Origin: a virus
Taxonomy: Duplodnaviria > Heunggongvirae > Uroviricota > Caudoviricetes
Direction: 5' to 3' (one strand)
DNA: 64,000 bases
IMG/VR virus record: IMGVR_UViG_3300005535_000017
Location: 82,331-146,330 of that record
Under the pieces are notes generated by a model that was given only the letters and a program-made list of their open reading frames with translations, was not told the origin of the DNA and searched no databases. The position numbers and the translations under genes were made by a program. This document shows positions 6,529-43,884 of the stretch, one piece after another (positions within the stretch are counted from its first letter, which is position 1; the number at the start of each line of letters is the position of its first letter).

Positions 6529-6533
6529 GGCAT

Positions 6534-6584
6534 AAGCGCGAGCGCTGTGCGTTAGCCAGCATAGAAGGCTTGCGCTCTTTTTTC
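6534..6584 (+). terminator. putative rho-independent terminator after the 682-aa gene
   Basis: GC-rich imperfect hairpin (gagcgc ... gcgctc, plus self-complementary agcgcgagcgct) followed by TTTTTT at 6578-6583. Next gene has GGAGG RBS at 6591-6595. Confidence 0.4.
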
Positions 6585-6601
6585 ACCTTTGGAGGTCGCA
6601 C

Positions 6602-13500: not shown

Positions 13501-16500
13501 CAACCTTCGCGAGATGGCCACCTACAAGGCCGACCAGCACCTCGGGGACAATCTCGACGACATGAATCACACCGACTTCTGGGATCGCGTCCGCACGGGC
13601 CAGCCGCTGCCGGCTCCTCGCCCGACGTTCGCGTACAAGAAGTTCGAGAACCTGCTCACCGGCCTCGGCGTCAACATCCAGAAGCAAGGCAACGAGCTCC
13701 AGCTCATGCCGTTGACTGACAAGGGCGTGCTCGCTCTCTCGCACGGCGAGATCAAAGACGCTGGTCGCATGCTCCGTGGCAAAGATGCCAAGGAGCTGGA
13801 GAAGGGCCTCTTCGACCCGAAGATCACCGGCGGCCTGCCGGATGACAAGGGCAAGGGACTCTTCTGGTCTCACATCAAGATGGCCGAGCCGGTTCCCAAT
13901 CCGGTGTTCGTCGGCTCGAGCAAGTCGCAGCTCGGCCCGGCCGTCATCCTATCCGGTCTTCGGTATGAAGACTTCGAAGCGGTTGCGAAGGGCAAGAAGG
14001 CCCTGCCCAACGGCGAGACAGGTGGTATCGCAATCAACAATCTTCTCAAGAAGATCGACGTCAAGGCCGAGCTGAAGAAGACGCTCGCTGAGCTCCCGAA
14101 GCTGAAGAAGGACGCGCTCAACAAGGCCAACAAGAAGGCGCGCTACCTCATCGCTCTCGACAAGCTCAACATGAAGCCGCACGAAGCGTACATGATGAAC
14201 TACCTGCCGGTGCTGCCGCCGGCGTTCCGGCCCATTGTTCCGATGCCGGATGGTTCACTGCGCTACGACGACATCAACCAGTACTACCACGCCATCGGTC
14301 TCCTCAACGATCGTCTGAAGAACCCGGTCAAGGAGCTCGGCGGTGCCTCGGAGAGGAACGTCCGCGAGCAGCTCTACGACGCCATGAGGGCCTACGCTGG
14401 CCTCGGTGGGCGTCCGGTCTACGAGTCGAACCGCCCGATGAAGGGCATCCTCGACGTCGTTGCTGGCGATCAGCCGAAGCAAGGCTACTTCCAGAAGCGG
14501 CTCATGAAGCGCCGGCAGGAGCTCTCCATGCGCTCCACCATCATCCCGGAGCCGGCCATGCACCTCGACTACGTGGGCCTACCGAAGGAAGCGGCGATGG
14601 AGCTCTACAAGCCTTTCGTCGTGCGAGAGCTGGGTCAGGTCGGCCTCAACCCGGTCAATGCGCTGAAGGCGGTGAAGGAGAATAGGGACATCGCCTGGAA
14701 GGCGCTCGAGAAGGCGATGGACAAGCGCCCGGTCCTCCTCAAGCGAGACCCGGCTCTGCACAAGTTCTCGATCATGGCCTTCAAGCCGAAGATGGTCGAG
14801 GGCAAGGCCATCCAGATCCACCCGCTGGTCACCGCTGGCTACAACGCTGACTTCGACGGCGACACCATGTCCGTCTTCGTCCCGCTCACGGACGAGGCAG
14901 TCAAGGAGTCCCACAAGATGTTCCCGTCGAACAACCTCTTCAGCTCGACCAGCGGCGACATCATGTACCAGCCGACGCAGGAGTCACTGCTCGGTCTTCA
15001 CCTTCTGACGAAGTGGGGCAAGGAGACTGGTAAGACATTTCCCAACTTCCTCGAAGCACAGAAGGCGAAGGACAGAGGTGCTCTTGGCATGAACGACGTC
15101 TTCACCATCGGTGGCAAGAAGACGACGCTCGGCCGCATGACAATCAATAGCTACTTCCCAGACGGCTTCAAGGCCAACGAGGAACTTCTGCACGACTCGA
15201 AGTTCACGCTCAAGAAGAAGAACGTGAAGCAGCTCCTGGGTAACCTGGCCCGCCAGGACCCGAAGAGCTTCGCCCTCACCGTCGACAAGCTGAAGGACTT
15301 GGGTAACAACTACTCCTACGAAGCGGGGTTCTCCTTCGGTCTGAAGGACCTTGATGTTCAGAAGGGGCTGCGTGATCACATCCTCCACCCCTACGATGTC
15401 GAGGCGGGAAAGATCAGGTCCAGCAAGCTCTCGAAGGAAGAGAAGGACGCCAAGCTGGTGAAGATCTACTCGATGGCGACCGATGAGCTCGAGAAGGAGC
15501 TCCTGCCGCACTTCGAGAAGACGGACAACAAGATCTACACGATGGTGTACTCCGGTGCTCGCGGCTCGACGCCGCAGTTCCGCCAGATCACCATGGCTCC
15601 GATGCTCATGAAGGACGGCGCTGGCGGCACCATCCCCACTCCGGTCAAGAAGAGCTATGCGGAGGGTCTCGACGTCGGTGACTACTGGACGTCTCTCCAC
15701 GGCGCCCGCATGGGTACCCTGCAGAAGGTCGAAGGTACCTCTGAGCCTGGAGCTCTCACCAAAGACGTTGCTAACGTCATGATGCCGACGCTGATCGTCT
15801 CGAACGATTGCGGTACCAAGAACGGCATCACGATGAATGTGGCCGACGTGGAGATCCAGGATCGAGTTCTGGCCAAGGAAGCGAAAGTGGGTAAGCACAC
15901 GCTCGCTCCTGGCACGATCATCACTCCAGAGGTGACGGCAACTCTGCAGAAGCACGGCGTCGACAAGATCATCGTGCGGTCTCCTCTGAAGTGCGCCCAC
16001 GGGCAGGGCCTGTGCGCCAAGTGCTACGGACTCAGTGAGAACGGACACTTCCACGAAGTCGGCACCAACATCGGCGTGATCGCCGGACACGCTCTTGGTG
16101 AGCCAGCGACGCAGCTCGCCATGGACTCGTTCCACACCGGTGGCGTCGCGGCGTCTCGAGGCGCCGGTGCGGTCGACAAGTTCACTCGACTGAACCAGCT
16201 TCTCAATGTCCCCAAGATCCTGTCGCACTCTGCTACCCTATCCACCATGGAAGGGACCGTGTCTCGGATCGAGCACGACAAGGCGACGAACGGTCACTAC
16301 ATCCACATCGGCGGGGAACGGCACTACGTCCCGGCCGTCAACAAGGTCACCGTCGCTGTGGGCGACAAAGTCTTCCCGGGCCACGCGCTGTCGGACGGCC
16401 CCATCAATCCCCGCGAGCTCTTGCCGCTGACCGACATCCACAATGTGCAGAACTACGTCACGAACAGCCTACACAACGATGTGTACAAGGACGAGCACGT

Positions 16501-16872: not shown

Positions 16873-18021
16873 ATGAGCAGACGCGCTGTAGACGCCTTCC
16901 CCAAGAAGCGCTCGTCCTCCACGGCGACGACGGATCTTCGCGACGTTTCCGTTTATCGGGGCCGTGTCGTCAACGTCAACATTCGGGACTACACGGTGGA
17001 CACCCGAATGGAGGCTGCGCCCTATACGGTGAAGTTCGACATCCCCTTCATCTCTCCCTACGTGAATCAGAACCAGGGAGAGGGCATCAACTGGATGCCG
17101 GAAGTCGGGTCGGTTTGCTGGGTCTGTGAGCCTTCAGAAGACGGACGAGAGAGCTTCGTTCTTGGCTGGTCTGTGGTGGATGAGGGCGGCAGCTATCGTG
17201 GTGGGCGCTCTCTTCTCAATCCTGGAGACATCGAGCTCAAGACAAGAGACCTGAACTTCGTCACTCTCCGTCGAGGAGGGATCGTTCAGATCGGCTCTAC
17301 TCCCATCTGCCAGCGCATCTTCCTACCCATTCGAAACGTGATGCAGGACTTCGCCGAGAACTACGAGCTCCACACCCCGGCTGGTGACCTCACATGGCAG
17401 GTGCAGAGGAAGGATGAAGATTCCGACGGGCACCAGAAGTGTCTGTACCAAATCGCCGCCAAAGAGTTCGCGGACGACTCCAATGACAAGACGGTCGCCC
17501 TCCTCAAAATCGGTTCCCATGGCGACGGTGACAAGACTATCCTGACGCTGCAAACCCGCGATAAAGGTGGAGGAGACGTCAAGATAGGGCTCACCTTCGA
17601 CAAGGACGGCAACGTCAACTGGACCATGGAAAAGAACTACTCCTTGGTGCTCAACTCAGGTGACCTGACGCTCCAAGCGAAGCAGGGCAAAGTCTCGGTC
17701 TCGTCGAACAAGGCGATGTCGCTCGATAGCCAAGACTCGATGGATCTCCACAGCACAAAGGCGATGGGAATCAAGACGGACGACGCGATGACGATCCAGG
17801 CCATGCAGAAGCTGGTGCTCAAGGGCACAGCGGGGATCGATATCGACTTGGCGCAATGGCCCGTCTTGCGCAACTCTCCTGACTTCATCCAGTTCATCGC
17901 TGCAGTCGCTGCTCAGCTTGGAACTCCAGTGACGACGCCCTTCGGCACTCTCGTCGCTGCGAACCCTGGCATCCTCTCGATGATTCCCAAAAACCACCAG
18001 AACCCGAAGGTGAAGGTCTAA
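16873..18021 (+). CDS. baseplate central spike/hub protein (gpV / gp5-like OB-fold plus beta-helix)
   Basis: 382 aa. N-terminal PYVNQNQGEGINWMPEVGSVCWVCEPSEDGRESFVLGW resembles the P2 gpV OB-fold (VGEQVLILAVGGELDTAFVLPG). C-terminal repetitive beta-strand segment rich in short T/S/D/K units. Start 2 nt after the RNAP stop, no own SD. Confidence 0.5.
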   Translation: MSRRAVDAFPKKRSSSTATTDLRDVSVYRGRVVNVNIRDYTVDTRMEAAPYTVKFDIPFISPYVNQNQGEGINWMPEVGSVCWVCEPSEDGRESFVLGWSVVDEGGSYRGGRSLLNPGDIELKTRDLNFVTLRRGGIVQIGSTPICQRIFLPIRNVMQDFAENYELHTPAGDLTWQVQRKDEDSDGHQKCLYQIAAKEFADDSNDKTVALLKIGSHGDGDKTILTLQTRDKGGGDVKIGLTFDKDGNVNWTMEKNYSLVLNSGDLTLQAKQGKVSVSSNKAMSLDSQDSMDLHSTKAMGIKTDDAMTIQAMQKLVLKGTAGIDIDLAQWPVLRNSPDFIQFIAAVAAQLGTPVTTPFGTLVAANPGILSMIPKNHQNPKVKV

Positions 18022-18022
18022 C

Positions 18023-20041
18023 ATGAATCTCTTCCTCGATCAGGACTTCAAGCCGACCTTCGAGAAGGTGGCCATGCCGGTGAAGCTCGGTGACAACACC
18101 GAGAACTGGCAGCGGGAGATCGCATCGGAGATCTACAAGCAGCTCCCCTACCTGGCGGACTACTCGGTCAACGTGATGCTCGATCGCGTGGATGCCCAGC
18201 GGGGCTACGCCTTCGGAGCTGCCGAAGTCACCAATCAGACGGATTCTCCTCTGCCTGATCAGCCGGAGAACTCGGTCAAGATCCCCATCATCGTCAAGGA
18301 CCGGCTCATGCAGCCACTGGACGTGATGCTCGATGGCAACGAGGCTCTTCCTCTCAACGAACGCCGCCTGCGGGAGAAGCTCTTCCGCACGGCCGCCGTC
18401 GAGACGTCAACCCGCAAGCCCACCGATCAGGGCATGGTCGACCAGCTCTATCCGCCGATGCGTACCAATTACGGCTACGGCAATGCCGTGGCGACTGGCG
18501 TTGGTGTTGGCGGCTTCGGCAAGCAGGCGTCAGCGAAGAAGCCCCTGTGCGAGGTGATTGCCTCGACCATCTCTGATCAACAGTACGAAGCCTTCCTCGA
18601 GAAGATCGCCTCCGACGAGGAGACCCGTCTTCTCTTCCTGAAGAACGCGTCGGTTCGGAAGATCTCGAACCGGATGGCGATGGTTCAGCACATGAGCGTC
18701 GAGAAGACGGCTTCGGCGCTGATCCACAGCATCAAGCCGACGGTCGTGCAGATCACCAAGCTCGCCTCGGGCAACTTCAAGGTGAAGTGGGCCAACGCCG
18801 GCGCCTTCGCTCCGCAGGAGATGCAGGCCTCGCCGGACCAGGCTGCCGCCATGGCTGGGCAGGACATGTCGAAAATGCAGCCAGGTCAGACCATGACGGT
18901 CACCACCCAGCGTGCTCAGAAGCAGGGCCTGGACGAGCCGGATGGGGCGCTCATCACTGAGTTCGGTGATTACGCTGTGAAGAACGCGGACAGTGGCGAG
19001 ACTCTGATGGGCACCGTGCTGCCTGTGGTCGACTTCCAGATGCAGCCACTTGAGTTCTTCGTCTTCACTGATGGCCACGGCGCCTATGGTGCTCAGGACG
19101 AGATCATCGGTGTGCGTCAGGAGGGACCTGGCGGCATGGCTCTCGAGGCGGCTCAAGGACAGCAGCCGCAGGGCGACGGCATTTTCGTCTACCACCCACA
19201 GGGTGGTGCCAAGCCATTCTCGACTCTTCCTCTCACCATCGAATCGACCTCGCAGGGCCCGGACGGGATGCTGCAGTACATGGTCAGCGACGTCTTCGGG
19301 GCGCAGATGACCCTCGTCCCCACTCCTGGTATCTCTGCATTCGAGCCGATGGGAGAGGGCGATATGTTCGCCATCCCGGACGACATGCAGTGGGTGCCCC
19401 TGAGCGGAGAGCCGGTTCACCTGGCCAAGGGTGACACCCCGGACTCGGCGGCCGATGCCAAGAGCTTGCCGAACGAAGTGGCCGTCAAGTCGACGGGCCC
19501 AGGAGAGACGTCTCTCGAGGGCATGCCGGTCATGAAGGTTGCCCGAGACAACCGCTGGTTCTTGAAGACGGCGGAGGCAACGTTCCTGCTCTGCGCCATG
19601 GGCCTTACCCAGGACGAAGCGCAGGAGGTTATCAAGGAAGCGGAGCGTCGCCCCAATAAGCTGGTGAAGCTTGCAGGCCTGAACCCCATCGTGCCGCTCG
19701 GCGACATCCACGCGAATGCAGAGAAGAAGGCTGCGGCGCTGCTCGAGCAATTCGATTACAGCTTCTGGCGCCGGGACTTGGTGAAGGAGGCGGCTGCGCT
19801 CGAGGACACCGAGACGGCCGACAAGATTCTCGCCATGAACTTCATCAACCCGGAGAACATCTCCATCTTCGCCAGCTACCTCCCCGACCTCGACACGACA
19901 TCGACCAAGCTCGCCGAGATGCTGATCGCCTCACGTCTCGGCCTCAACCAGGTCCCGACTGGTGCCGCCGAGCGTGCCATGAAGAACATGGAAGAGGTGA
20001 TCGGCGGCCTTCGCTCGCTCCAGCAGAAGGAGCTCGTCTAA
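18023..20041 (+). CDS. hypothetical protein, probably structural (672 aa)
   Basis: Start 1 nt after the spike stop (translational coupling). No motif recognised. Confidence 0.5.
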   Translation: MNLFLDQDFKPTFEKVAMPVKLGDNTENWQREIASEIYKQLPYLADYSVNVMLDRVDAQRGYAFGAAEVTNQTDSPLPDQPENSVKIPIIVKDRLMQPLDVMLDGNEALPLNERRLREKLFRTAAVETSTRKPTDQGMVDQLYPPMRTNYGYGNAVATGVGVGGFGKQASAKKPLCEVIASTISDQQYEAFLEKIASDEETRLLFLKNASVRKISNRMAMVQHMSVEKTASALIHSIKPTVVQITKLASGNFKVKWANAGAFAPQEMQASPDQAAAMAGQDMSKMQPGQTMTVTTQRAQKQGLDEPDGALITEFGDYAVKNADSGETLMGTVLPVVDFQMQPLEFFVFTDGHGAYGAQDEIIGVRQEGPGGMALEAAQGQQPQGDGIFVYHPQGGAKPFSTLPLTIESTSQGPDGMLQYMVSDVFGAQMTLVPTPGISAFEPMGEGDMFAIPDDMQWVPLSGEPVHLAKGDTPDSAADAKSLPNEVAVKSTGPGETSLEGMPVMKVARDNRWFLKTAEATFLLCAMGLTQDEAQEVIKEAERRPNKLVKLAGLNPIVPLGDIHANAEKKAAALLEQFDYSFWRRDLVKEAAALEDTETADKILAMNFINPENISIFASYLPDLDTTSTKLAEMLIASRLGLNQVPTGAAERAMKNMEEVIGGLRSLQQKELV

Positions 20042-20166
20042 CCCAGGAGGTCTCTCATGAGTAAGCCGGATGCCGATCGTACGAAGGAAATGGACGACAT
20101 CCAAGCAGAGATCCGAAAGGTCGTCGAGCGCATCGACGCTTCATCGAAGAAGAAGACCAAGGAGCC

Positions 20167-21000
20167 GTGACGACACCTCTCTTCACCGCCTTCTCCGACG
20201 AGTTCCAGCAGATCCAGCGACTGAAGCTCGCGAGTCCGCTTGGTGTCGCAAAGTCGTGGTTGAAGGGGCAGTACGCACAGCTCGGCAACGCCGCGGCCCA
20301 GGCATCCCAAGGACACCAGTCCTTCAGCCCGATGCTTGGTCAGCCCGCTCCACCGATCGTCGGAACGATCACCAACTTCCTCGCCAACAAGCTGCCGACC
20401 CCAAAGAAGCCACCGGGGCCGGTCATCGAGGGAGCCAAGCGCCTTCTTAGCTCTAAGCCGGCGAAGACGATCATCCCCCTCATCGATCAAACCAGCGAGT
20501 TCTTGAAGCTCGCACAGGTCGAGCCCTACCAACAGAAGACACAATACTCATGCTCAGCGGCGTGTCTGAAGGCCGTGCTCGAGCACTGGGGAGCCGATCG
20601 CTTTGCCGAGCACGAGATCATGTACGCCATCGGCGTGCGCGATCGCGGCGGTGCGGAGGTGGACGAGATCACCCGTGGAGCTCAGAAGCTCGGCTTCGAC
20701 GCGTACGACAAGTGCTTCTCGTCCCTCGATGAGGCGAAGGCAATCACCGATCAGGGCATCCCGATCATTGCCGACTTCCAAAGCTTCAACAACCCTGGCA
20801 AGGGGCACTACGTCGTCATCACTCAGATCGACGACAATGTGGTCCATCTGATGGACCCCAACACCGATGGCAACCAGCGTGTTATTACACGCGCTGAGTG
20901 TGAGCAGCGGTGGTGGGACAAGACCATGGCCCCGCCACACAACCTGATGGTGAAGTGGGGAGTGGTGGTCACCCCAAGGAGTGGCGATGGGACTCGGTGA
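20167..21000 (+). CDS. putative papain-like cysteine peptidase (C39-like domain)
   Basis: 277 aa. C-terminal half has Cys in QYSCSAACLKAVLEHWG and His in GKGHYVVITQID, then N/D, arranged as in C39 / transglutaminase-like cysteine peptidases. Motif-level only. Confidence 0.4.
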   Translation: MTTPLFTAFSDEFQQIQRLKLASPLGVAKSWLKGQYAQLGNAAAQASQGHQSFSPMLGQPAPPIVGTITNFLANKLPTPKKPPGPVIEGAKRLLSSKPAKTIIPLIDQTSEFLKLAQVEPYQQKTQYSCSAACLKAVLEHWGADRFAEHEIMYAIGVRDRGGAEVDEITRGAQKLGFDAYDKCFSSLDEAKAITDQGIPIIADFQSFNNPGKGHYVVITQIDDNVVHLMDPNTDGNQRVITRAECEQRWWDKTMAPPHNLMVKWGVVVTPRSGDGTR

Positions 21001-21463
21001 CTTCATCAAGACTAACCCACGTGCCTTCCTCACCGGCGTTGGGGCAGTTGCTGGCGGTGCTGGCGGAGCCGTCCGTGGATTGACGATGAAGTCCTGGCAT
21101 GACCAGTGGCGAGATGTAACGCACCACTATGATGCCGAGCAGAGAAAGAAAAACGCGTGGAAGATGGGGCTCGCTGGCGGAATCGCTGGCGGTCTCGTCG
21201 GGTACACAACTCCCGTTCATACAGTGCCGGCCTCAGCACTCCCCAAAGCAGTCCCGTCGGCCTTCAAAGGCGTAAAGTCGCAGAAGGACGTGAAGAAGCT
21301 CGTCCGCGAGTTCTCGCTCAAGCACCATCCAGATCGCGGCGGTGATGCCAAGAAGTATCGAGAGTTCATCGACGCCTACAACGCGTTCAAGAAGCATCCC
21401 AAGTTCCCGAAGACGGCCATGGTGGCCTTTGTGGACGAGATGCTCCACATCCTCAATCGATGA
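20981..21463 (+). CDS. membrane-anchored J-domain (DnaJ-like) protein
   Basis: 160 aa. N-terminal Gly-zipper hydrophobic segments (GVGAVAGGAGGAV; LAGGIAGGLVGY). C-terminal J-domain signature LKHHPDRGGDAKKYREFIDAYNAF with the HPD tripeptide. Confidence 0.65.
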   Translation: MAMGLGDFIKTNPRAFLTGVGAVAGGAGGAVRGLTMKSWHDQWRDVTHHYDAEQRKKNAWKMGLAGGIAGGLVGYTTPVHTVPASALPKAVPSAFKGVKSQKDVKKLVREFSLKHHPDRGGDAKKYREFIDAYNAFKKHPKFPKTAMVAFVDEMLHILNR

Positions 21464-22917
21464 GTCGTCTCGCTACCAACCTCGGGAAGATCGCGGGCGT
21501 GGCAGGGCTACAGCCCCATCAGCAGCGTGTTGTCGATCGTATCCAGCAGCCTGACCAGCCGGGCTTGGTGGTGGCGCACGGTCTCGGTTCTGGAAAGACG
21601 AGAACTGCGATCGAGGCTCAGAAGGCTCTCAAGATGCCGTCGGACGTCATCGTTCCGGCAGCACTCCAGGCGAATTACCGCAAGGAGCAGAAGAAGTGGT
21701 TGGGCGGAGCCAAGCAGAAGGCTCATGTCCAGTCGATGCAGAACATCACGAGGAAGCGTCAGGCTCCGACGCAGCCCCTGATGATCGTCGACGAGGCTCA
21801 CCGTGCTCGTGAGCCTCAGACGCAGACCTACAAGACGCTGGCGAAGAACGAGGCCGAGAAGCGCCTGCTTCTGACCGGCAGTCCATTCTACAACCGCCCG
21901 TCTGACATTGCGCCACTCGTAGACCTCGCCTCTGGAGCGCCGTTGCTTCCGACGGACCCGGAGCGGTTCAATCAGAGGTTCATTCGTCAGAAGAAGATTA
22001 GCCCTGGCATCATCAATCGACTCCGCGGCCTCAAGCCGGGTGTCGTTGAAGAGCTGAACCCCAAGCGCCAGGAAGAGCTTCAAGGCATCTTCGACAAGTG
22101 GGTCGACTATCACCCGTCTGCGAAGGAAGACTTCCCCGAGGTCAATCGTGAGGACGTCAAGGTGCCGATGGACCCGAAGCAGCTCGAGGTCTACGACACC
22201 ATCCTGAAGAAGGCGCCACCTTGGGTGTCGGCCAAGATCCGCTCTCGTCTGCCTCCCAGCAAGCGGGAATCCCAGCAGCTCAACGCCTTCTTGGGGGCCA
22301 GTCGGCAAATCGCCAACTCCACTGCTCCCTTTCAGGAGGACGTGAAGAAGGTCTATGAGCCCAAGCTGGACGAAGCCTTCTCTCGGTTGCAGCAAGAGCT
22401 TGCCGCGAACGAGAGGGCAAAGGCTGTCGTCTACTCCAACTACCTCGGCGCAGGCATCAATCCCTACGCCCAGAGGCTTCAAGAAGCTGGCATCCCCTAC
22501 GGCGAGTTCACCGGTGAGATGCCGAAGTCGAAGAGGGACGAGCTCGTCAGGCAGTACAACGAGAACAAAATTCGCGCCCTCTTGCTCTCTTCGGCCGGTG
22601 GAGAAGGTCTCGATCTGCAGGGCACTCGACTCATCCAGATGCTAGAGCCTCACTGGAATGATGAGAAGTTGAAGCAGGTTGAGGGTCGTGGCATCCGTTA
22701 CAAGAGCCACGCGATGCTTCCCCCAGAAGAGCGGAATGTGAAGGTCCAGCGGTTCTTGGCGACTCGCCGTCCAACCGGCGTTCTCGAGAAGCTGCGCCTC
22801 AAGAAGCCAGGTGGATCGGTCGACGAGTACCTTGCCGCCAGGGCCCAGGAAAAGGAAAACTTGATCCAACAATTCCGGGCCCTACTTGAACAACAGCAGC
22901 AGCCTGCAGCACAATAG
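21460..22917 (+). CDS. SNF2-like superfamily-2 helicase/ATPase
   Basis: 485 aa. Walker A GLGSGKT, DEAH box MIVDEAHRARE, motif III LLTGSP, helicase-C motifs SAGGEGLDLQG and QVEGRGIRYKS. Confidence 0.75.
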   Translation: MSRLATNLGKIAGVAGLQPHQQRVVDRIQQPDQPGLVVAHGLGSGKTRTAIEAQKALKMPSDVIVPAALQANYRKEQKKWLGGAKQKAHVQSMQNITRKRQAPTQPLMIVDEAHRAREPQTQTYKTLAKNEAEKRLLLTGSPFYNRPSDIAPLVDLASGAPLLPTDPERFNQRFIRQKKISPGIINRLRGLKPGVVEELNPKRQEELQGIFDKWVDYHPSAKEDFPEVNREDVKVPMDPKQLEVYDTILKKAPPWVSAKIRSRLPPSKRESQQLNAFLGASRQIANSTAPFQEDVKKVYEPKLDEAFSRLQQELAANERAKAVVYSNYLGAGINPYAQRLQEAGIPYGEFTGEMPKSKRDELVRQYNENKIRALLLSSAGGEGLDLQGTRLIQMLEPHWNDEKLKQVEGRGIRYKSHAMLPPEERNVKVQRFLATRRPTGVLEKLRLKKPGGSVDEYLAARAQEKENLIQQFRALLEQQQQPAAQ

Positions 22918-24364: not shown

Positions 24365-24909
24365 GCTACCTCGAGCCGCGCATGGATGGGTTCTACGACG
24401 AGTTTGAGAAGATCTCAGCTTATTCGAATAAGCGGCTGTTTCGGGATATCGCTCCTCTTATTGGAGGGGCTGGAGCTCTTACCGGTGCCCTGAGTACTCC
24501 ATTTGGAAAAAAGACCGACGAGAAGAGCTATGCACTCCGTGCGGGGAAACGAGCACTCGTCGGAGGCGCTATCGGTACTGGTCTGTCTTTGGGAGGGTCA
24601 GCACTCGCAAAGATGGCGCACGAGCTCACCCAGAGCGAGCGCACCGACTTCGCTCAGCCCAAGAAAGAAGAAGAGGGTCACAAGGGCAAGTACCCCATTC
24701 CCGACAAGAAGCACTACGGGATCGCCCTGGGCTTCGCGAAGATGCACCACGATTCTGGCGCCCTGAAGGCCATCCATGCGAAGGGCAAGGCGATGGGCTA
24801 CACAAAAGAGGCCGAGGGGTTCGGCTCGCCCAACATCTCCGACGCCGATGAGATGGCGAAGATGGCAGGCCGCAGCCGGCAGAGGGTCAGCCAGCTTTTT
24901 GGGAGATGA
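24361..24909 (+). CDS. glycine-zipper protein
   Basis: 182 aa. LIGGAGALTGALS and LVGGAIGTGLSLGGSALA. Its 3-prime end overlaps convergent rnhB by about 23 nt. Confidence 0.55.
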   Translation: MSYLEPRMDGFYDEFEKISAYSNKRLFRDIAPLIGGAGALTGALSTPFGKKTDEKSYALRAGKRALVGGAIGTGLSLGGSALAKMAHELTQSERTDFAQPKKEEEGHKGKYPIPDKKHYGIALGFAKMHHDSGALKAIHAKGKAMGYTKEAEGFGSPNISDADEMAKMAGRSRQRVSQLFGR

Positions 24910-25492
24910 TCTTCGAGATGAACTGAGTGCGGTGGTGCGGAGTCGCCCCATTCATCTTGAGTCTGGCCTGGTGTAGCGTCGAGCCGTAGCCCTTGTTCGT
25001 CCCCCACACGTAGTTCGGGAACTCCTTGTCGAGCTCGTTCATGAGCCGATCGCGAATGACCTTGGCGAGGATGCTGGCTGCTGAGACGGGCCAGTACTTC
25101 GAATCTGCCTTGGGCTCCACTCTCTGACGGTCGATTGGCCAGCCCCTGATAGAGTACTCGCCGTCCACATAGATCAGGTCGGGAGGCTGCTTGAGGCAGG
25201 CGATGGCCCTCTGGAAGACAACGTCGTTGCACCAGTTGATGCCCTTCTCGTTGATCTCTTCCACCGAGCACTCGCCCAACCCGAAATCGAGGAGGAACGG
25301 CGACGTGAGGATGCGCTTCCACACCTCCTCTCGTTTCCTCTCGGTCGCGAATGACTTCGAGTCGGCCAGGCCCTCGATGGGAGGGTTGGACATCGTCACC
25401 TGACCGTCGAACTTGAAGAGAGCGCACGCGGCCACCAGAGGACCGGCAAGAGCACCACGACCCACTTCATCCACACCTGCGATCAGCATCAC
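24887..25492 (-). CDS. rnhB: ribonuclease HII
   Basis: 201 aa. N-terminal GVDEVGRGALAGPLVAAC matches the RNase HII catalytic motif (G[IV]DE[AV]GRG.L.GP.V.A). Conserved downstream acidic residues. Confidence 0.8.
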   Translation of the reverse strand: MMLIAGVDEVGRGALAGPLVAACALFKFDGQVTMSNPPIEGLADSKSFATERKREEVWKRILTSPFLLDFGLGECSVEEINEKGINWCNDVVFQRAIACLKQPPDLIYVDGEYSIRGWPIDRQRVEPKADSKYWPVSAASILAKVIRDRLMNELDKEFPNYVWGTNKGYGSTLHQARLKMNGATPHHRTQFISKIISQKAG

Positions 25493-25725
25493 TTCACCTC
25501 GGTGATCTTTCCGACGACGTGAGGAGGAATGAAGAGATCTCGGACGGCCTTCTCCGGGATGTTGATGATCAGCTCGCGATTGGCGGTGTTCGCAAGAGCC
25601 TTCTGGTAGTCTTCGGGTAGCTCGCCGCCTAGTGTGTCGACGGTGTACTCATCGACGGCAGCTTTCAACCACGGCACATCGCCATCTTCGCAGCCCTCAT
25701 TGGACCAAACTGTTCGAACTTGCAT
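25489..25725 (-). CDS. hypothetical protein (78 aa)
   Basis: Coupled to rnhB (overlap 25489-25492). Confidence 0.4.
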   Translation of the reverse strand: MQVRTVWSNEGCEDGDVPWLKAAVDEYTVDTLGGELPEDYQKALANTANRELIINIPEKAVRDLFIPPHVVGKITEVK

Positions 25726-25728: not shown

Positions 25729-26061
25729 CTAACCTCTGTTGGTGAACGGTCCTCGCTTATCGCTCAGCAGCGGATTCTTTTGCTGAACAGGTCCGAGGCG
25801 CCGTTTCGTTCCAACGACGAGGATTAGTTTGTCTGGCTGGTTGTATATGCGCTGCAAGACGCAGTCATTCGCGTTGGCGAAGCCGTGCGCCAGATTCTGG
25901 AAGGGGCGGTAGTTCTCGCCAGTGAGTGGCTCTCTGAGATGGAAGATGACGTTCTTGATGAGTGGGTTGACAGTATCTTCGATGGTGTACGTCGAGGAGA
26001 TGTCAGCCGCTCTGTTGAACGACGCATGGAACTCTCGGACCCAGGCGAGGGAGGGTTGCAT
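25729..26061 (-). CDS. hypothetical protein (110 aa)
   Basis: First gene of a short minus-strand unit ending with rnhB. Confidence 0.45.
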   Translation of the reverse strand: MQPSLAWVREFHASFNRAADISSTYTIEDTVNPLIKNVIFHLREPLTGENYRPFQNLAHGFANANDCVLQRIYNQPDKLILVVGTKRRLGPVQQKNPLLSDKRGPFTNRG

Positions 26062-26105
26062 GGCAAAATCCTAGTGACTTTGTTAGGATCCTGGTAGAGG
26101 AATCG

Positions 26106-26540
26106 GTGAACAAGATCCGCTACCCACGAAGAACTAAGACTTGTCCACGGTGCAAGAAAGACAAGCCGGCTACGGCTAAGTTCTTCTGTCCAGACAAGCG
26201 AGGCTATATTTGCTGGTGCAGGCGCTGCTCGGCCGACCGAGCGACTGAGTGGGGAAAGACCAATCATCGTCGACAAACGGATACTCGATTCAAGAGACGC
26301 TACGGCCTCTCCATAGAAGAGTTTGATGCACTAGTCCTACAGCAGAACGGCAAATGCGCCATCTGCGGAGAGGCCCCAAAGGCCGTGAAGAGCAAACTTC
26401 AGGGATTCAACGTGGACCACGACCACAAGACGAAGAAAGTCCGGGGGCTGCTTTGCTTCGGGTGCAACACTGGAATCGGCTGCCTGAGGGATAACCCTTC
26501 CCGGCTGCGGTCTGCTGCCGACTACCTCGAGAGGATGTAA
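26106..26540 (+). CDS. recombination endonuclease VII-like nuclease (His-Me finger) with N-terminal zinc ribbon
   Basis: 144 aa. NGKCAICGEAP...FNVDHDHKTKKVRGLLCFGCNTGIG aligns with T4 endonuclease VII (GKCLICQ...HLDHDHELNG..GKVRGLLCNLCN). N-terminal CPRC...CWCRRC. Immediately upstream of the terminase gene. Confidence 0.8.
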   Translation: MNKIRYPRRTKTCPRCKKDKPATAKFFCPDKRGYICWCRRCSADRATEWGKTNHRRQTDTRFKRRYGLSIEEFDALVLQQNGKCAICGEAPKAVKSKLQGFNVDHDHKTKKVRGLLCFGCNTGIGCLRDNPSRLRSAADYLERM

Positions 26541-28381
26541 TGGCTTACGAGATCGTGGAGGATCTCCACTCCTACCAACGCGACCGAGAGCGTCGCGTAA
26601 TGCTGCTGGATCATGAGGGTCTCTACTCTGGTCCCGAGTTCCCGGAAGAGTGGGATTACGAGCCGGATCCTGGCAACGAGTACGGAGCACAGGACTTCAA
26701 GGACCTCCAGGATCTCGTCTCGGTGCTCCCTTCGGAGTTCACCGAATTCGCGATCATGATGCCGGACAAAGAGCATCAGACCTACAAGAACTACTCCTTT
26801 GCCGAGCGCGAGTACCTCCGCCAGATCTACGACACCTCATCGAAGCGGACCCTGCTGAAGTGCGGTCGACAGGTCGAGAAGTCGACCATGCTCGGCAACA
26901 AGCTCCTTTCCTACTCCTGCATCGTCACTGCCCTCAACAGCCTCTACGTCTCGCCGACCAACCAACAATCGAAGGTTTTCTCGCAGGACCGTCTGAAGGA
27001 GCCGATCGAGACCAGTCCATTCTTGAAGAGCTGGACGACCACCAAGCTCTCGGACAACGTCTTCCTCAAGAAGTTCATCAACCGCTCCCAGATCACTCTC
27101 CGCTACGCCTTCATGAACGCCGACCGCTGCCGCGGCATCCCGGCGGACATCATCTGCATCGACGAGCTCCAGGACATCCTCACCGACAACATCCCCGTTA
27201 TCGAGCAGTGTGCTTCGCACTCCGTCATCAATATCGGCGGTGAGTCGCACAAGGGCGGTGTCTTCATCTTCTCTGGCACCCCCAAGAGCCTCGACAACAC
27301 AATCGAGGCCTATTGGCAGCAGTACTCCACCCAGAACGAATGGGTGGTCCCCTGCCACGCCCACTCTATGTTTACGGGCGACGGCAAGATCACCAAGGTC
27401 CACTGGAACATCCTCACCGAGGACCACATCGGGGCAAAGAGCCTCATCTGCGACAAGTGCGGCGGCCCCATCGACGCCAAGGATCCGATGGCGCAGTGGG
27501 CGTCTCTGAACCCAGACATCATCAATCAGATCCCCAAGCCCTATGAGGGCTTCCGCATCCCGCAGCTCATGGTGCCGTGGATTTCGCACGACGACATCAT
27601 CCAGAACCTCAAGACCTACCCGCGCGATCGTTTCTACAATGAGGTGCTCGGCCTCTCGTACGATTCGGGCACTCGACCCCTCACTCAGCAGGACTTGATC
27701 GACAACTGCTCGCAGTACCTCTCACTTGATCCAGCCTCTCTCGAGAAGTACAGGAACCACTTTGGCGGTTCGACACCCATCTACGGCGGCATCGACTGGA
27801 TGGGTGGCGGTGAGCACTCCTTCACCGTCTTCACGATGGGCGCCTATCTGGACGGCAAGTTCCAGGTCTTCTACTACCGTCGATTTGAGGGGCGCGAGGC
27901 TGAGCCTCAGACGCAGATGGATGAGATCATCGAGACCATCCTCAAGTGGAACGTGCGTAGGATCGGGGTCGACTACGGCGGCGGCTTCTGGCCGAACGAC
28001 AAGCTCACCAACCGCTTCGGCCTCAACCGCATCGTTAAGTACCAGTACTCGAATCCGGGCGAGAAGATTCGCTGGGAGGACGGACTCAAGCGATTCCTCG
28101 TCAACCGTAGCGAAGTGATGAGCGACATCTTCAACGCCATCAAGCGGCGCAACGTCTTCCGCTTCCCGCAGTGGGACCAGTTCAAAGCGCCATTCGGCGG
28201 CGACTTCCTGAACATCTTCGCTGAGTACAACGAGCAGCGGCGCATGATCGAGTACAAGAAGTCGCCCAACGCCAGCGACGACTCGTTCCACTCCACCCTC
28301 TTGTGCTTCATCGTCTCGATGCTGGACTTCCCTCGTCCAGATATCGTGGCGCCGGCTATCACTCCCAGGGCGAATAGCTAA
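26540..28381 (+). CDS. terL: terminase large subunit
   Basis: 613 aa. Deviant Walker A CGRQVEKST (cf. T4 gp17 SRQLGKT). Walker B ADIICIDELQD. C-terminal RNase-H-like nuclease region with IYGGIDWMGGG and IGVDYGGGF acidic motifs. Confidence 0.75.
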   Translation: MAYEIVEDLHSYQRDRERRVMLLDHEGLYSGPEFPEEWDYEPDPGNEYGAQDFKDLQDLVSVLPSEFTEFAIMMPDKEHQTYKNYSFAEREYLRQIYDTSSKRTLLKCGRQVEKSTMLGNKLLSYSCIVTALNSLYVSPTNQQSKVFSQDRLKEPIETSPFLKSWTTTKLSDNVFLKKFINRSQITLRYAFMNADRCRGIPADIICIDELQDILTDNIPVIEQCASHSVINIGGESHKGGVFIFSGTPKSLDNTIEAYWQQYSTQNEWVVPCHAHSMFTGDGKITKVHWNILTEDHIGAKSLICDKCGGPIDAKDPMAQWASLNPDIINQIPKPYEGFRIPQLMVPWISHDDIIQNLKTYPRDRFYNEVLGLSYDSGTRPLTQQDLIDNCSQYLSLDPASLEKYRNHFGGSTPIYGGIDWMGGGEHSFTVFTMGAYLDGKFQVFYYRRFEGREAEPQTQMDEIIETILKWNVRRIGVDYGGGFWPNDKLTNRFGLNRIVKYQYSNPGEKIRWEDGLKRFLVNRSEVMSDIFNAIKRRNVFRFPQWDQFKAPFGGDFLNIFAEYNEQRRMIEYKKSPNASDDSFHSTLLCFIVSMLDFPRPDIVAPAITPRANS

Positions 28382-31526: not shown

Positions 31527-33932
31527 ATGCTCGTCAAGCAGGTTCAGTTCTTCGGCAAGAACGATGAGGGGCAGATCTTCTGCCAGCCCTTGCTCGATGA
31601 CGGCTTGGTAAAGACTGCCTCTGCCTCATCGCGAGCGAACCTGCATCCTCAGATCGCCGACTTCGTCAGGACTGTTCGCCCCAGCAAGCACGGCATCTAC
31701 GTCCTGGTGAACGCCATGGGCGCCGGCGAGATCTGGGGCTCCAACATCAATGGCGACCACTTCCCTGAGAAGGAGCTGATCCACTCTCCGAAGGACTGGG
31801 AGAAGCTTCCCGCCACGCGGATGAAGGAGATCGGCAAGAGCTGGGAGTACGGCTTCCCCACCTTCATGGGGGCGCATCCGTACAAGCACCACGTCAACAA
31901 GGACTCGTCGCGGGCATTCGGCTCGGTCGAGCTCGCCGCGTGGAACCCAAAGATGCATCGCGTGGAGCTGGTGGTCTATCTTGACCGCGAGCTCTGCAAG
32001 CGTTTCGACGCTCAGGATGTGATCGAGAAGATCGAGCGGGGAGAGTTCCCGGACGTCTCAATGGGCTGCAAGGTGCCCTACGACGTCTGCTCGATCTGTC
32101 AGCACCGGTCGAAGACTCCGAAGGACTACTGCCACCACGCGAAGAGCATGATGAATGTCATCCTGCCAGATGGCAGGAAGGTGTTCGTCTACAACCCTCG
32201 CCCTCGCTTCTTCGACATCTCCTTCGTCTTCATCGGAGCCGACAAGACGGCCAAGGTCATGGCCAAGCTTGCGTCAAAGGGCAATCAGGTCTGCATGGGT
32301 GAGTACTGCACCATTCCTCGACTCAGCGTCGATGTTGGTGAGCAGTTCTCGAAGTTCGCCGGTGAGCAAGACCCTACGGCCCCGCTTCGTGAGGAGCATC
32401 CTACCTGGCTCGGCAATCACCAGGACGGGATGTACGACCCGACCTTCAACGACTTCATCGGCAACAAGTCTCGTACTCAGATCATTCAAGAGACGAAAGC
32501 TGCCAAGCCGGCATTCGAGGCGCGGCTCTATCCTCCGGCTCAGCTCGAGGCAAATGAGTCGTATGACGCGCTCGTCAACCTCGACGCTGCTCGTGAGAAG
32601 ACAGCTTCAGTCAAGACGGCCAATGACCCAATTCAGAAGTTCATCCACGTCCAAGGCATCCCGATCATGCTGGAGTGGTTGAAGGGTCAGACGCGTAAGT
32701 ACTACTCAAAGGCCGATCCTTCAAAGGTGACCTACCAGAAGCTGATGAAGGCCGATTACGGCTACATCCCAGCGACCGTAGATGCCGATGGCGAGCAGCT
32801 CGATGTCTATGTGGGGCCGAGCCGCGATTCAGAGTTCGTCTTCATGATCAATCAGCTCAAGGACGACGGCTCGTTCGATGAGCGAAAGGTCATGATCGGC
32901 TATCGCGATGAGGCGGCGGCAAAGAAGAGCTATCTCGACCATATGCCTGAAAGGCGTCTTGGGCAGGTGTCGAGGACGACAATGGGTGAGTTCAAGAAGA
33001 CCCACCTTGTCAGTGCTCGAAAGGCACGCAAGACCCGCGATGCCGAGGCAGTGAAGATCGCGTCAGCGACGTGCGGATGCCACGGACTTGGAGATGATTG
33101 CGGCGGTACGGCTGAGAAAGTCGCGCACGCCGTCTTTCCAGGTACGCGTAATTCTGAAAAATCCGCTTCCCATAGGAAGCTGAGTGAGATCATAAAAACA
33201 ATACCGGCAGGTCCTTTTTCGAAAGAGACATTGCCAAGACTGGAGAAAGGGGAGAGCTCGATCCCAAACAAGGCGCTGGACGAGATGGGCAAAATGGATC
33301 TTACCGAAGCCCTCTCAACCCCCGCTATGATGGGCATCGTTCTTAAGCCCCATGAGTTTCAGAGGGTGATGCTGGTGCGAATCGGAGAGAAGCCGCTGGC
33401 GGATGAACTCGACAGGAAGGGGGAGGTCTTCGGGCCTTCTTCGGACGTCGACGAGTCCCTGCAGGTGAATCCCGATCGCATCGATCGTGCTCTCAAAGAC
33501 CTCCTTCAGGCTCTGGGCATGGTGGGTGAGCGGTCAGTAGCCGCCACTCCTCTTGCTCGTCGAATGGAGCGTCTTGAAGCACGCCGTGCCGATCCGCGGA
33601 AGAGCGTCGAGAAGACCGCCTCCGCCGATCCCCTCATGAAGAAGCTGTCAGCCGCCTACAACGGCTACCGGCGCAGCATCGTGAAGAAGGCCACCGCCAT
33701 CCAGAAGTTCCTCGTCTCCGACCCCCAGCTCGCTCCCGAGTCATTCGGTAGCAGCATGGTGCAGGCCTTCGCCGGTGGGGTCGACAAGACGGCCAGCTCG
33801 AGCGTGTTCAGCCCCGACTCGCTCGCATACCTGACCGGGGCGCACCACACGGACCGGGCCATCCATATCGCCGATCAAGGCGTTCGGGTGTCCCTCGCCC
33901 AGACGGGCGCACTCGCAGAGGCGCTGTACTAG
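31527..33932 (+). CDS. putative prohead maturation protease-domain protein (HK97 S78-like N-terminal domain) with long C-terminal extension
   Basis: 801 aa. The N-terminal 230 aa carry S78-like landmarks in order: GIYVLVNAMGAG...NGDHF, HPYKHHVNKDSSRAFG (HxD...G), and VSMGCKV (cf. lSiGf catalytic Ser motif). Positioned upstream of scaffold-like and capsid genes. Confidence 0.4.
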   Translation: MLVKQVQFFGKNDEGQIFCQPLLDDGLVKTASASSRANLHPQIADFVRTVRPSKHGIYVLVNAMGAGEIWGSNINGDHFPEKELIHSPKDWEKLPATRMKEIGKSWEYGFPTFMGAHPYKHHVNKDSSRAFGSVELAAWNPKMHRVELVVYLDRELCKRFDAQDVIEKIERGEFPDVSMGCKVPYDVCSICQHRSKTPKDYCHHAKSMMNVILPDGRKVFVYNPRPRFFDISFVFIGADKTAKVMAKLASKGNQVCMGEYCTIPRLSVDVGEQFSKFAGEQDPTAPLREEHPTWLGNHQDGMYDPTFNDFIGNKSRTQIIQETKAAKPAFEARLYPPAQLEANESYDALVNLDAAREKTASVKTANDPIQKFIHVQGIPIMLEWLKGQTRKYYSKADPSKVTYQKLMKADYGYIPATVDADGEQLDVYVGPSRDSEFVFMINQLKDDGSFDERKVMIGYRDEAAAKKSYLDHMPERRLGQVSRTTMGEFKKTHLVSARKARKTRDAEAVKIASATCGCHGLGDDCGGTAEKVAHAVFPGTRNSEKSASHRKLSEIIKTIPAGPFSKETLPRLEKGESSIPNKALDEMGKMDLTEALSTPAMMGIVLKPHEFQRVMLVRIGEKPLADELDRKGEVFGPSSDVDESLQVNPDRIDRALKDLLQALGMVGERSVAATPLARRMERLEARRADPRKSVEKTASADPLMKKLSAAYNGYRRSIVKKATAIQKFLVSDPQLAPESFGSSMVQAFAGGVDKTASSSVFSPDSLAYLTGAHHTDRAIHIADQGVRVSLAQTGALAEALY

Positions 33933-39260: not shown

Positions 39261-40037
39261 TTGGAGATGTCGTACAAGCTGAAGAACACGGCACTCGACC
39301 ACGACAAGCGCTTCCTTCACCGCAAGGCTTCCAAGATGCAAATGGAGCCAGTCATTGGCGGCCGTCGTCTGCGCATTCGCCAGTCGATGGTCATCAGTGA
39401 CGAGCTCTTCGAGCACAACAGGGCCAACCTCGAGCTGTGGAACAAGTGGGGTGTGGTCTCTTGGGAGAAGGTCGGTGGGGAAGGCGGTCGGAGGGTCCCG
39501 ACGAAGGAAGAAGTCATGGCGGCTGGCTACTCGGAAGAGGCCGCCGAGTCGATCATCGAGCGGGAGAAGCGGCTTGCCGCCGAAGAGGCTGCTGCTCCCA
39601 AGGAGACTCTGTCCGAAGGCGGGCTCCTCTCGCCGCAGCCGGGCGAGTTCGATGTCTGGGTGGGCGAAGTGGGCACCAACCAGATCGGCGTGGTGAAGGC
39701 TCTTCGTGAGAGCACTCAGCTCTCAATCAAGGAGGCAAGCGACCTTCTCGGCATGGCTCCTGTGATCGTGCTGGGAGGTGTCGACGAAGCTGCGGCCACC
39801 AAGCTCGCCCAGTCCTTGGTCGATGCCGGAGCCAAGGCCAGCGTGCAGAAGAGCGGGACAGCGCCGCAGCCCTCGCTGATCCCCGAGACGCTCGTGCCCG
39901 AGAACTACACTCCGACGCCGGAATCGAAGCCGTCCGAGGATGCCTCGAGCCTCTTCTCAGAGCCGTCGCAAGCGGAGACGACTCGCGTCGAGACCAAGCC
40001 GCAGGCGCAGCCCAAGAACCCGAAGAGCAAGAAGTAA
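39261..40037 (+). CDS. protein containing a ribosomal bL12 (L7/L12) C-terminal domain fused to novel N- and C-terminal regions
   Basis: 258 aa. Residues about 128-200 GEFDVWVGEVGTNQIGVVKALRESTQLSIKEASDLLGMAPVIVLGGVDEAAATKLAQSLVDAGAKASVQK align with E. coli L7/L12 CTD [69 protein letters not shown]. No L10-binding NTD. Pro/Ser/Glu-rich tail. Confidence 0.8.
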   Translation: MEMSYKLKNTALDHDKRFLHRKASKMQMEPVIGGRRLRIRQSMVISDELFEHNRANLELWNKWGVVSWEKVGGEGGRRVPTKEEVMAAGYSEEAAESIIEREKRLAAEEAAAPKETLSEGGLLSPQPGEFDVWVGEVGTNQIGVVKALRESTQLSIKEASDLLGMAPVIVLGGVDEAAATKLAQSLVDAGAKASVQKSGTAPQPSLIPETLVPENYTPTPESKPSEDASSLFSEPSQAETTRVETKPQAQPKNPKSKK

Positions 40038-42975: not shown

Positions 42976-43884
42976 GTGAATCTCCAGATCCTCGAGTTCC
43001 GCGCGCAGTCATTCGATCTCGATCACGTCGACCTGTTCTGGAAGACAACAGACTTCTGGACGGGTCAGCCGACAGACGAGAACATCCTCGCGTACACCTT
43101 TCAGGTGCTGCGGTCGGAATCGCCTGCGGGTCCATGGGATCCCCTGACGAAGCCTTTTCAAGACCAGTACTACTTCCGAGATGTCTCTCCAGCCATCCTT
43201 CACAAATGGCGAGAGCTCTACTACCTCCTACGCGTCACTGATCAGCGCACTGGGGAAGTGAAGGACTTCGGCCCGACAGGGCAGATTGCCGAACCTGATC
43301 TCATTGCGCTCGAGATCATGCGGCAAGAGGATGTCCTGTTTCGCGAGTACGCCGGCAGGAAGTGCTGGTACTTCCCGATCAAGACGTTCGGTCCCAAGTG
43401 CATCTGCTACGACCGAGTGAAAGGCAAGAGGACCAAGAGCAACTGCGTCACGTGCTACGACACAGGCTACCTGGGCGGCTACCTCTCACCGATCGAGTGC
43501 TACGTGCAGATCGATCCCAGCTCGAACAACAACCAGGAGACTCCTCTCGGTAAGCAGCAAGCCAACAACACGACTGCCCGGCTCATCTCCTTCCCACCTA
43601 TGATGCCCGACTCCATACTGGTCGAGGCTGAGAACAGGCGATGGAAGATAGTGACAGTGGCAATGACAGCACGGCTTCGAGCAGTCGTGCATCAGGAGCT
43701 GACGATCCACGAAGTGCCTCGCGGCGACGTGGAATACAAGCTGCCCGTCAACTTCGCCGATCTGACGAATGTCCAGGCGTCGGCCGAGAGAAACTTTACC
43801 AACCCAACCCACGTGGACGATGACTCCCAGCGACTCGACTTCTTGGCTGTTTACGGGTACAACCCCCGAGGAACCGTCCGCTGA
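42976..43884 (+). CDS. hypothetical virion-module protein with Cys cluster (302 aa)
   Basis: GTG start after AAGGAGG. CWYF..C.C....C..C cluster (KCWYFPIKTFGPKCICYD...SNCVTCYD). Confidence 0.5.
   Translation: MNLQILEFRAQSFDLDHVDLFWKTTDFWTGQPTDENILAYTFQVLRSESPAGPWDPLTKPFQDQYYFRDVSPAILHKWRELYYLLRVTDQRTGEVKDFGPTGQIAEPDLIALEIMRQEDVLFREYAGRKCWYFPIKTFGPKCICYDRVKGKRTKSNCVTCYDTGYLGGYLSPIECYVQIDPSSNNNQETPLGKQQANNTTARLISFPPMMPDSILVEAENRRWKIVTVAMTARLRAVVHQELTIHEVPRGDVEYKLPVNFADLTNVQASAERNFTNPTHVDDDSQRLDFLAVYGYNPRGTVR

Follow-up and report, generated by a model that had tools for sequence, protein, structure and literature searches.

Why does a tailed phage carry two genes for endonucleases of the endonuclease VII (Endo VII) type, one directly before its terminase gene and the other among presumed structural genes? 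The question is raised by a 64,000-nucleotide (nt) stretch of viral DNA (IMG/VR record IMGVR_UViG_3300005535_000017, positions 82,331 to 146,330; hereafter the window, with positions counted from its first letter). The first gene, endo1 (26106–26540, plus strand), has a GTG start and codes for 144 amino acids (aa), and its product was classed as an endonuclease with the Endo VII (DHHRN) motif from the open reading frame (ORF), Pfam and PHROG matches, and an alignment. The second, endo2 (43820–44347, plus strand), codes for an Endo VII-motif endonuclease of 175 aa, or of 192 aa if the ATG at 43769 is used. An earlier note on this DNA had described two such genes with N-terminal zinc ribbons and a DHDH/RGLLCxxCN core, and both ORFs were confirmed (Pfam E about 1e-22). 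We estimate at roughly three in four the probability that endo1 and endo2 are free-standing homing-type endonuclease genes of the DHHRN, F-CphI-like family; most likely they are optional selfish elements and not part of the packaging machinery.

The window has a GC content of 60.3% and appears to be part of a large uncultured soil phage of ~210 kb, an assignment made because there is no close cultured phage and relatives lie on contigs of up to ~210 kb. A DNA search of cultured phages around the terminase gene returned no matches, and the closest cultured-phage match to the large terminase subunit (TerL) was only 29% identical, so that cultured phages provide no synteny information. Many relatives were found among IMG/VR and metagenome assemblies, on contigs of up to about 210 kb; the 1223-aa downstream protein, searched against viral contigs, gave no match.

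Filled and empty alleles at the terminase junction

The endo1 gene lies in a cassette of 449 nt (26091–26539, plus strand) that replaces the 5-nt sequence GAGCA of empty alleles, a net gain of 444 nt, between a divergently oriented gene (25729–26061, minus strand) and the TerL gene (26540–28381, plus strand; 613 aa; PF05876 GpA_ATPase, E = 1.3e-11). The boundaries were obtained from a three-way alignment with two empty alleles (loci L001 and L005). Inside the cassette, and read from the alignment, is a Shine-Dalgarno-like GAGGA (26097–26101, plus strand) 4 nt before the GTG, and the stop codon TAA of endo1 shares one base with the ATG of the PF05876 gene (TAATG), in agreement with the earlier description of this copy as lying immediately upstream of terminase.

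Occupied and empty sites were compared among loci encoding a TerL 100% identical to that of the window, so that the protein is the same on both sides of the comparison. The cassette is present, with an identical endonuclease, in seven of these loci (the window, L030, L032, L034, L035, L039 and L040) and precisely absent from four independent assemblies representing four samples (L001, with which L033 is the same, L005, L031 and L036), all with one identical 43-nt junction. The anchor spacing is 487 nt in the filled and 43 nt in the empty state. At base-exact resolution the empty allele reads TTGTTAGGATC-GAGCA-ATGGCTTAC, its junction contains GACTTTGTTAGGATCGAGCAATGGCTTACGAGATCG, and the insertion is a clean one, into a 34-nt gap at a strand switch.

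Among relatives with 55–69% TerL identity, the homologue of the 25729–26061 gene directly abuts the terminase gene in all but one (L021), and this short junction before the terminase gene indicates that the empty site is the ancestral state. The exception carries, at the terminase junction and on the opposite strand, a gene matching PF02945 (Endonuclease_7; E = 3.4e-24) whose core is almost identical (DHDHKTKKVRGLLCF.CNTG.G). This inverted endo1-like gene (L021, 9567–9899, minus strand) seems to have no intact N-terminal zinc ribbon, with stop codons in frame upstream, and it may be a decaying copy.

The endo2 site in a dual-coding overlap

Upstream of endo2 is a Cys-rich gene to which no function was assigned (42976–43884, plus strand; 302 aa) and whose 3' end is dual-coding. 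Downstream is the small gene that endo2 has invaded (44344–44658, plus strand; 104 aa), which encodes a hydrophobic Gly/Ala-rich stretch. The overlap of endo2 with the 3' end of its Cys-rich neighbor, already remarked upon in the earlier note, was recovered here. Compared with empty alleles, a segment at 43866–44363 (plus strand) stands in place of GCGC, a net gain of 494 nt, and is made up of a recoded left half-site, the body of endo2, and a new ATG with seven codons for the downstream gene.

Twelve loci carry endo2 and are nucleotide-identical over 700 nt (L024–L027, L041–L046, L048 and L049); as L041, L043 and L046 re-sample L024, L025 and L026, they represent at least nine independent contigs. 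Precise absence, with a sequence 494 nt shorter, was found in three loci from three different samples (L029, L047 and L050). The sequence of these empty alleles contains GGGTACAACCCGCGCGGCACTGTTCGATGAGCTGACCAAG, and in them the last codons of the 302-aa gene also belong to the small gene downstream: TAC GGG TAC AAC CCG CGC GGC ACT GTT CGA TGA is translated as YGYNPRGTVR* in the frame of the 302-aa gene, and the +1 frame reads ...TGTTRAALFDE... and runs on into the small protein, the ORF of which begins at an ATG equivalent to window position 43820. The overlapped single-copy state is also seen in relatives at 48–59% identity (L052, L054, L057, L068, L072 and L074), with ATG or GTG at the corresponding place, and is taken as the ancestral arrangement.

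The window has two copies of the overlap. The left one (43866–43884, plus strand) still terminates the 302-aa gene and reads CCC CGA GGA ACC GTC CGC TGA, compared with CCG CGC GGC ACT GTT CGA TGA in the empty alleles; each of the six sense codons has been changed, and every change is synonymous for the 302-aa gene. The right copy, GGCACTGTTCGATGAG, starts at 44364. In the +1 frame, reading from ATG 43820 passes through ...PEEPSAEKHCRYC... into the endonuclease, and the small gene restarts as MNKITQQ-ALFDELTK from a new ATG (44344) that overlaps the stop codon of endo2 as ATGA. The first ~15 codons of endo2 are the original 5' leader of the small gene, inside the end of 42976–43884.

In alignments, L056, L057 and L029 use the start that corresponds to the ATG at 43820, and the ATG at 43769 reads AAG in the empty allele L050. 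From 43820 to the first Cys of the zinc ribbon the frame offers no ATG, GTG or TTG, and endo2 therefore appears to depend on a captured start codon, ATG 43820. Such a start would explain why gene callers miss or truncate endo2. For window 43885–44343 and the loci L024–L027 and L041–L049, automatic calls give either a 52-aa antisense ORF or an 84-aa fragment from an internal Met, and full-length endo2 is therefore without an entry in the protein database.

The same arrangement recurs in a second, distant lineage. In L056 (the same as L071), where the neighboring gene is 51% identical, there is an endo2-like gene whose architecture agrees in every respect: a captured start (MATTRTSQQHLVTQEDPSGKACSKC...), the ATGA overlap, a new MNLRTKAALFDELGK start, and a left copy that is fully synonymously recoded (CCA AGA GGA TCC CTC AGG TAA, compared with CCA CGC GGC TCT CTT CGA TGA in the empty locus L072). 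The endonuclease of L056 is 35% identical, and the catalytic residues and zinc ligands are intact in every copy. The closest relatives of L056 (L072, L057 and L073; 76–81% nt identity) are all empty.

Three other explanations for the state of this junction were considered. A secondary deletion between the two imperfect repeats was rejected as the origin of the empty allele, as its junction, CGC GCG GCA, matches that of the distant, single-copy relative L052 and is not rebuildable from either copy in the window. A +1 frameshift joining the upstream protein to endo2 has no signal in its support, and a captured start is simpler. Lastly, L022, an 81% relative that has a duplicated overlap and no endonuclease, was considered as a scar of endonuclease loss, a reading that was downgraded because L065, L066 and L069 show independent, un-overlapping duplications without an endonuclease. 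The overlap has been undone repeatedly by short tandem duplications of the dual-coding sequence, with no endonuclease, at L022: 7500–7560 (the same as L064), L065: 1340–1400, L066: 3360–3420 and L069: 3360–3420. In L053 (4885–4990), a 57% relative, the homologue of the 44344–44658 gene is apparently missing altogether, so that conservation of the small gene across the group is not universal.

Overlap with an upstream ORF has precedents in phage T4, where it occurs in five of the twelve free-standing homing genes (Edgell et al. 2010, PMC2988022). Like mobE (with nrdA) and segC (Edgell et al. 2010, PMC2988022; Friedrich et al. 2007), endo2 overlaps its upstream ORF, has a stop-start overlap suggestive of translational coupling, and rearranges the host gene without destroying it. 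The nuclease families of the T4 genes differ (HNH and GIY-YIG), and, unlike the T4 cases, endo2 appears to seize the initiation codon of its host gene and to supply a replacement downstream. We found no published description of this combination of overlap invasion, start capture, replacement ATG and recoded half-site, nor of the endo2 arrangement in the papers on the Cluster J-type genes discussed below. It offers a compact example of a mobile gene invading a gene overlap without killing either host gene.

A more specific proposal, which we put forward tentatively and rate as doubtful, is that endo2 follows a homing strategy aimed at the dual-coding overlap itself, whereby it duplicates the overlap, takes the start and leader of the small gene, recodes the left copy, and leaves the host gene to reinitiate. 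The target would be the ~25 nt that are read in two frames, CCN CGC GGC NNT NTT CGA TGA GCT, and the double coding constraint would keep it unusually conserved across relatives. Synonymous recoding of the left copy would confer immunity, and the small gene would depend on reinitiation at the ATGA after the endonuclease. If this were true, loss of endo2 would need a precise excision to restore the small gene, and expression of a host gene would be tied to retention of a selfish one.

Homing and its alternatives

The proteins themselves belong to a well-populated family. Against a gathering cut-off of 23.6 bits for PF02945, endo1 scores 80.7 bits (E = 7.6e-23, residues 60–142 of 144) and endo2 80.0 bits (E = 1.3e-22, residues 104–182 of 192), and PHROG 'endonuclease VII' profiles are matched full-length by both, the N-terminal part included. 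Each protein has four CxxC pairs, that is, two predicted Cys4 sites (one in the N-terminal ribbon and one in the core), together with the DHDH and RGLLCxxCN motifs. The ribbon of endo1 has C13/C16/C38/C41 and its core C84/C87, D104-H105-D106-H107, R113, C117/C120 and N121; the equivalents in endo2 (175-aa numbering) are C25/C28/C57/C60 for the ribbon, and C111/C114, DHDH 127–130, R136, C140/C143 and N144 for the core. The motif is intact in both, and in a 26-sequence alignment, where many metagenomic homologues have this same architecture, the DHHRN residues are invariant throughout. Presumably the N-terminal Cys4 zinc ribbon reads the DNA sequence and the zinc-stabilized C-terminal core cuts.

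The identity between endo1 and endo2 is 39%, confined to a 90-residue core, and closer relatives of each were found elsewhere (44–55% identity), for which reason they are judged to form one family without being recent duplicates; the term 'paralogous', used of them in the earlier note, is apt in the first sense and not in the second. No third copy is present within the 64-kb window. Matching places number 2894 in 2753 records of cultured phages, and the remark that two copies are uncommon was roughly right. At least 80% of endo1 is matched in 372 cultured-phage records, with an identity of at most 45%; most are annotated as 'endonuclease VII' or 'HNH endonuclease', and some lie beside or within terminase or tail genes.

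The family was named DHHRN in a study of F-CphI from cyanophage S-PM2, a homing endonuclease with an Endo VII motif (Fang et al. 2018, PMC6083498), and F-CphI is, in our reading of the literature, so far the sole DHHRN member with demonstrated homing-endonuclease cleavage. The tree of Fang et al. places proteins with a C-terminal motif (homing and restriction enzymes, including Hpy99I) apart from resolvases with an N-terminal motif (PMC6083498). Both endo1 and endo2 have the C-terminal motif behind a different N-terminal region, and motif position and Hpy99I matches alike place them with the endonuclease clade. Like F-CphI, which was compared by its description, they are small phage proteins with a C-terminal Endo VII motif (CX2C, DHDH, R, CX2C-N), grouped with homing and restriction enzymes, and encoded by free-standing genes and not by an ORF within an intron. 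They differ from it in that there is no Rfam intron here (a scan of the whole window found neither introns nor other RNA families), in that their putative targets lie at a terminase junction and in a gene overlap, and in that their activity is a prediction. Neither gene is embedded in an intron or intein; both ORFs lie between genes or overlap them, and no host ORF is split.

Similar genes have been noted before. In Cluster J mycobacteriophages, gp49-like free-standing homing genes were proposed near the terminase gene and after the tape-measure gene, and precise insertions were mapped by comparing close relatives (Pope et al. 2013, PMC3706429); a 2025 preprint describes Endo VII-like homing genes within the terminase inteins of actinophages. 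The Cluster J 'HNH' genes and the 'endonuclease VII' genes of actinophages, cyanophages and T7-like phages belong to the same family as endo1 and endo2, share their full-length architecture, and likewise lie beside terminase or inside structural modules, with precise insertions seen between close relatives. The present genes differ from them in their low identity (at most 45%) and in residing in an uncultured, ~210-kb phage of 60% GC.

Precise presence and absence at one site in near-identical genomes was thus found for both genes, which upholds the earlier suggestion of homing-type mobile genes, and occupation of the sites is sporadic among distant lineages (L056 and L021), with empty sites in the nearest relatives. 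Samples that contain empty alleles include JGI 3300025924 and ENA ERZ27252082/ERZ27252105. The earlier note had added that mobility would be called into question if all relatives carried both genes with equal divergence; nearly all relatives are empty. Population signals were also examined. Among the seven endo1 contigs none of 487 sites segregates, although the same contigs differ at 17 of 330 positions of the adjacent gene and at 13 of 1840 within terminase. The endo2 region is likewise invariant (0 of 700), and its flanks vary at 12 of 1500 and at 6 of 500 positions. Flank haplotypes and the presence of endo1 occur in shuffled combinations. At a synonymous single-nucleotide polymorphism 33 nt into the terminase gene (26572, plus strand), C occurs only in endo1-plus contigs (five of seven), and A in all contigs without endo1, in all those that stop short of the site, and in the other two endo1-plus contigs. 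Third-position GC is 0.66 in endo1 and 0.59 in endo2, and 0.74–0.86 in their large neighbors. One contig of 74.8 kb is endo1-minus and endo2-plus, which means that the two genes vary independently, and both sites are empty on the same large contigs of more distant relatives, for example IMGVR 3300037510_000657 (L006 and L052), 3300035210_000132 (L016 and L053) and 3300033144_005525 (L002 and L054).

In the homing reading, co-infection with a relative lacking the gene would allow the enzyme to cut the empty allele where the cassette inserts or close by, and repair templated on the carrier genome would copy the cassette into the cut genome. The carrier would be immune, its target being split by the insertion and, in the case of endo2, recoded as well. 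The endo1 cassette would be self-contained, with its own ribosome-binding site and GTG start, and endo2 would be translated from the original start of the small gene (ATG 43820), which would in turn be given a new ATG through the ATGA overlap. From the sequences we infer four things: that cleavage is site-specific, what the targets are, which codon starts endo2, and that homing is active. By the standards that can be applied to sequence, endo1 and endo2 appear to have every feature of known DHHRN homing genes, and the two natural pairs of filled and empty alleles, with base-exact junctions, make DHHRN homing recognition sites directly testable.

Several points weigh against this interpretation. 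The target sites are deduced from the insertion boundaries alone, and polymorphism with shuffled flanks would also be expected from ordinary recombination of an accessory gene without any drive. The endo2 gene lacks a start codon of its own, the ribosome-binding site preceding ATG 43820 is weak, and expression of endo2 is a prediction. Even where no endonuclease is present, the junction of 42976–43884 with the small gene has changed readily in evolution, and part of the duplication and recoding at endo2 may be unrelated to homing. Finally, no contig lacking both genes was found among the closest strains, where the endo2-minus contigs are too short to include the terminase site, and those strains may need at least one copy.

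Structural comparisons bear on what else the proteins might do. A sequence search of the PDB gave T4 Endo VII and Hpy99I as the sole matches, about equally close to endo1 (E = 1.4e-5 and 2.5e-5, respectively), and Hpy99I was the top match to endo2. The AlphaFold model of endo1 (mean pLDDT 89) consists of a small beta ribbon, three helices, a beta-beta-alpha unit and two short helices, and a Foldseek search with it returned Hpy99I first and T4 Endo VII next. With Hpy99I (PDB 3FC3) the two proteins have in common the core and a C-terminal tail, CNTG.G..KDNP..L......YL, and the CxxC...CxxC region before the Hpy99I core aligns weakly with the endo2 ribbon. A similarity to this restriction enzyme as strong as that to T4 Endo VII, the poor translation signals of endo2, and a highly recombinogenic population with cassette swaps next door and shuffled haplotypes would all suit accessory nucleases that are moved by ordinary recombination and kept for some other benefit (cutting of competitor or host DNA, or restriction-like exclusion), or that are decaying relics. 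We regard this as unlikely. Both the additional N-terminal domain of Hpy99I and its partner methyltransferase are missing from endo1 and endo2; no methyltransferase domain was found among the immediate neighbors of either gene, contrary to what a restriction enzyme would lead one to expect. No copy, not even the 35% identical homologue in L056, has lost a catalytic residue or zinc ligand, the reoccupation of the same two sites in distant lineages with empty nearest relatives fits site-specific invasion better, and the recoded half-site looks like target immunity.

Two redundant Holliday-junction resolvases or debranching enzymes, clearing branched intermediates before packaging as T4 gp49 does, are a still less probable explanation. 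Here the likeness is to the catalytic motif: the zinc-stabilized beta-beta-alpha-metal core of gp49 (PDB 1EN7/1E7D/2QNC) is shared, with equivalents of D40, H41, H43, R54 and N62. One of the two genes adjoins the terminase gene, the 64-kb window yielded no other resolvase, and no contig among the closest strains is proven to lack both copies. In gp49, however, the core is N-terminal and is followed by a helical dimerization and junction-binding domain of ~70 residues, which is missing from endo1 and endo2. The alignment of endo1 covers gp49 residues 15–86 only, and since the match stops at residue 86, where the query ends (residue 144), the C-terminal dimerization domain is absent; the model has just two short helices at this end. 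Conversely, gp49 is without the N-terminal zinc ribbon, and a C-terminal motif behind such a ribbon is the arrangement of the endonuclease clade and not of the resolvase clade (PMC6083498). Furthermore, gp49 is a conserved core gene, but endo1 and endo2 are optional: each is precisely absent from near-identical genomes, most relatives are empty at the two sites, distant relatives are empty at both on the same large contigs, and the cassettes are invariant on variable flanks. The packaging or resolvase role, which the earlier note had offered as an alternative to homing, is thus disfavored for genes that are dispensable beside an identical terminase.

It is highly improbable that endo1 is a terminase-associated His-Me (HNH-like) cofactor for genome-end cleavage, as the HNH-type gp74 of HK97, needed for that step, is reportedly: although endo1 directly precedes the TerL gene and runs into its start codon, it matches PF02945 only and not the HNH family, is absent from the four independent assemblies with a 100% identical TerL, where an obligate partner should co-occur, is absent from all 55–69% relatives but one and inverted in that one, and is a clean insertion into a 34-nt junction. 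Annotating endo1 and endo2 as homing-type genes, and neither as the resolvase of the phage nor as a terminase cofactor, matters for the packaging module of these uncharacterized ~210-kb soil phages.

Other homing elements and neighboring genes

Homing elements of several kinds abound in this phage group. In L016 (11251–12287), and at equivalent positions in L019 and L020, the terminase gene has an in-frame insert of ~1 kb after residue 420, which is identified as an intein by its Cys start and LAGLIDADG_3 domain (E = 1.5e-5); the terminase gene of the window has no intein. Downstream of terminase, the window encodes an 801-aa protein (31527–33932) with a PF18823 'InPase' domain and matches to PHROG minor head proteins. 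Relatives of this protein have one or two in-frame inteins with a LAGLIDADG_3 domain, a Cys start and a ...VHN|C end (L012: ~6256–7406; L018: ~13573–14684; L019: ~17893–19043 and ~19108–20174).

A sigma-70 promoter scan around endo1 and endo2 found none, and terminator-like matches around both genes lie inside coding sequence, in a number close to chance expectation. The neighbors of endo2, labeled in the earlier note as a virion protein and neck/sheath genes, had no match in Pfam or PHROG, so that these labels are putative, and the presumed structural genes had almost none. Within the presumed structural region, a 258-aa protein (39261–40037) has the C-terminal domain of ribosomal protein L7/L12 (PF00542, E = 2.1e-12), which is unusual in a phage gene at such a position.

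Close to endo1, a 78-aa ORF (25489–25725, minus strand) is present as one of two alleles in each near-identical genome. The alleles share ~55% identity in DNA and 45% in protein between flanks that are 96–100% identical, an allelic cassette swap that is independent of the presence of endo1. The replication and nucleotide-metabolism part of the window (6602–9337, 21460–22917 and 24887–25492) encodes a class II-type ribonucleotide reductase with a TSCPD domain, a SNF2-family helicase and an RNase HII, and the gene for RNase HII lies two genes upstream of the endo1 site.

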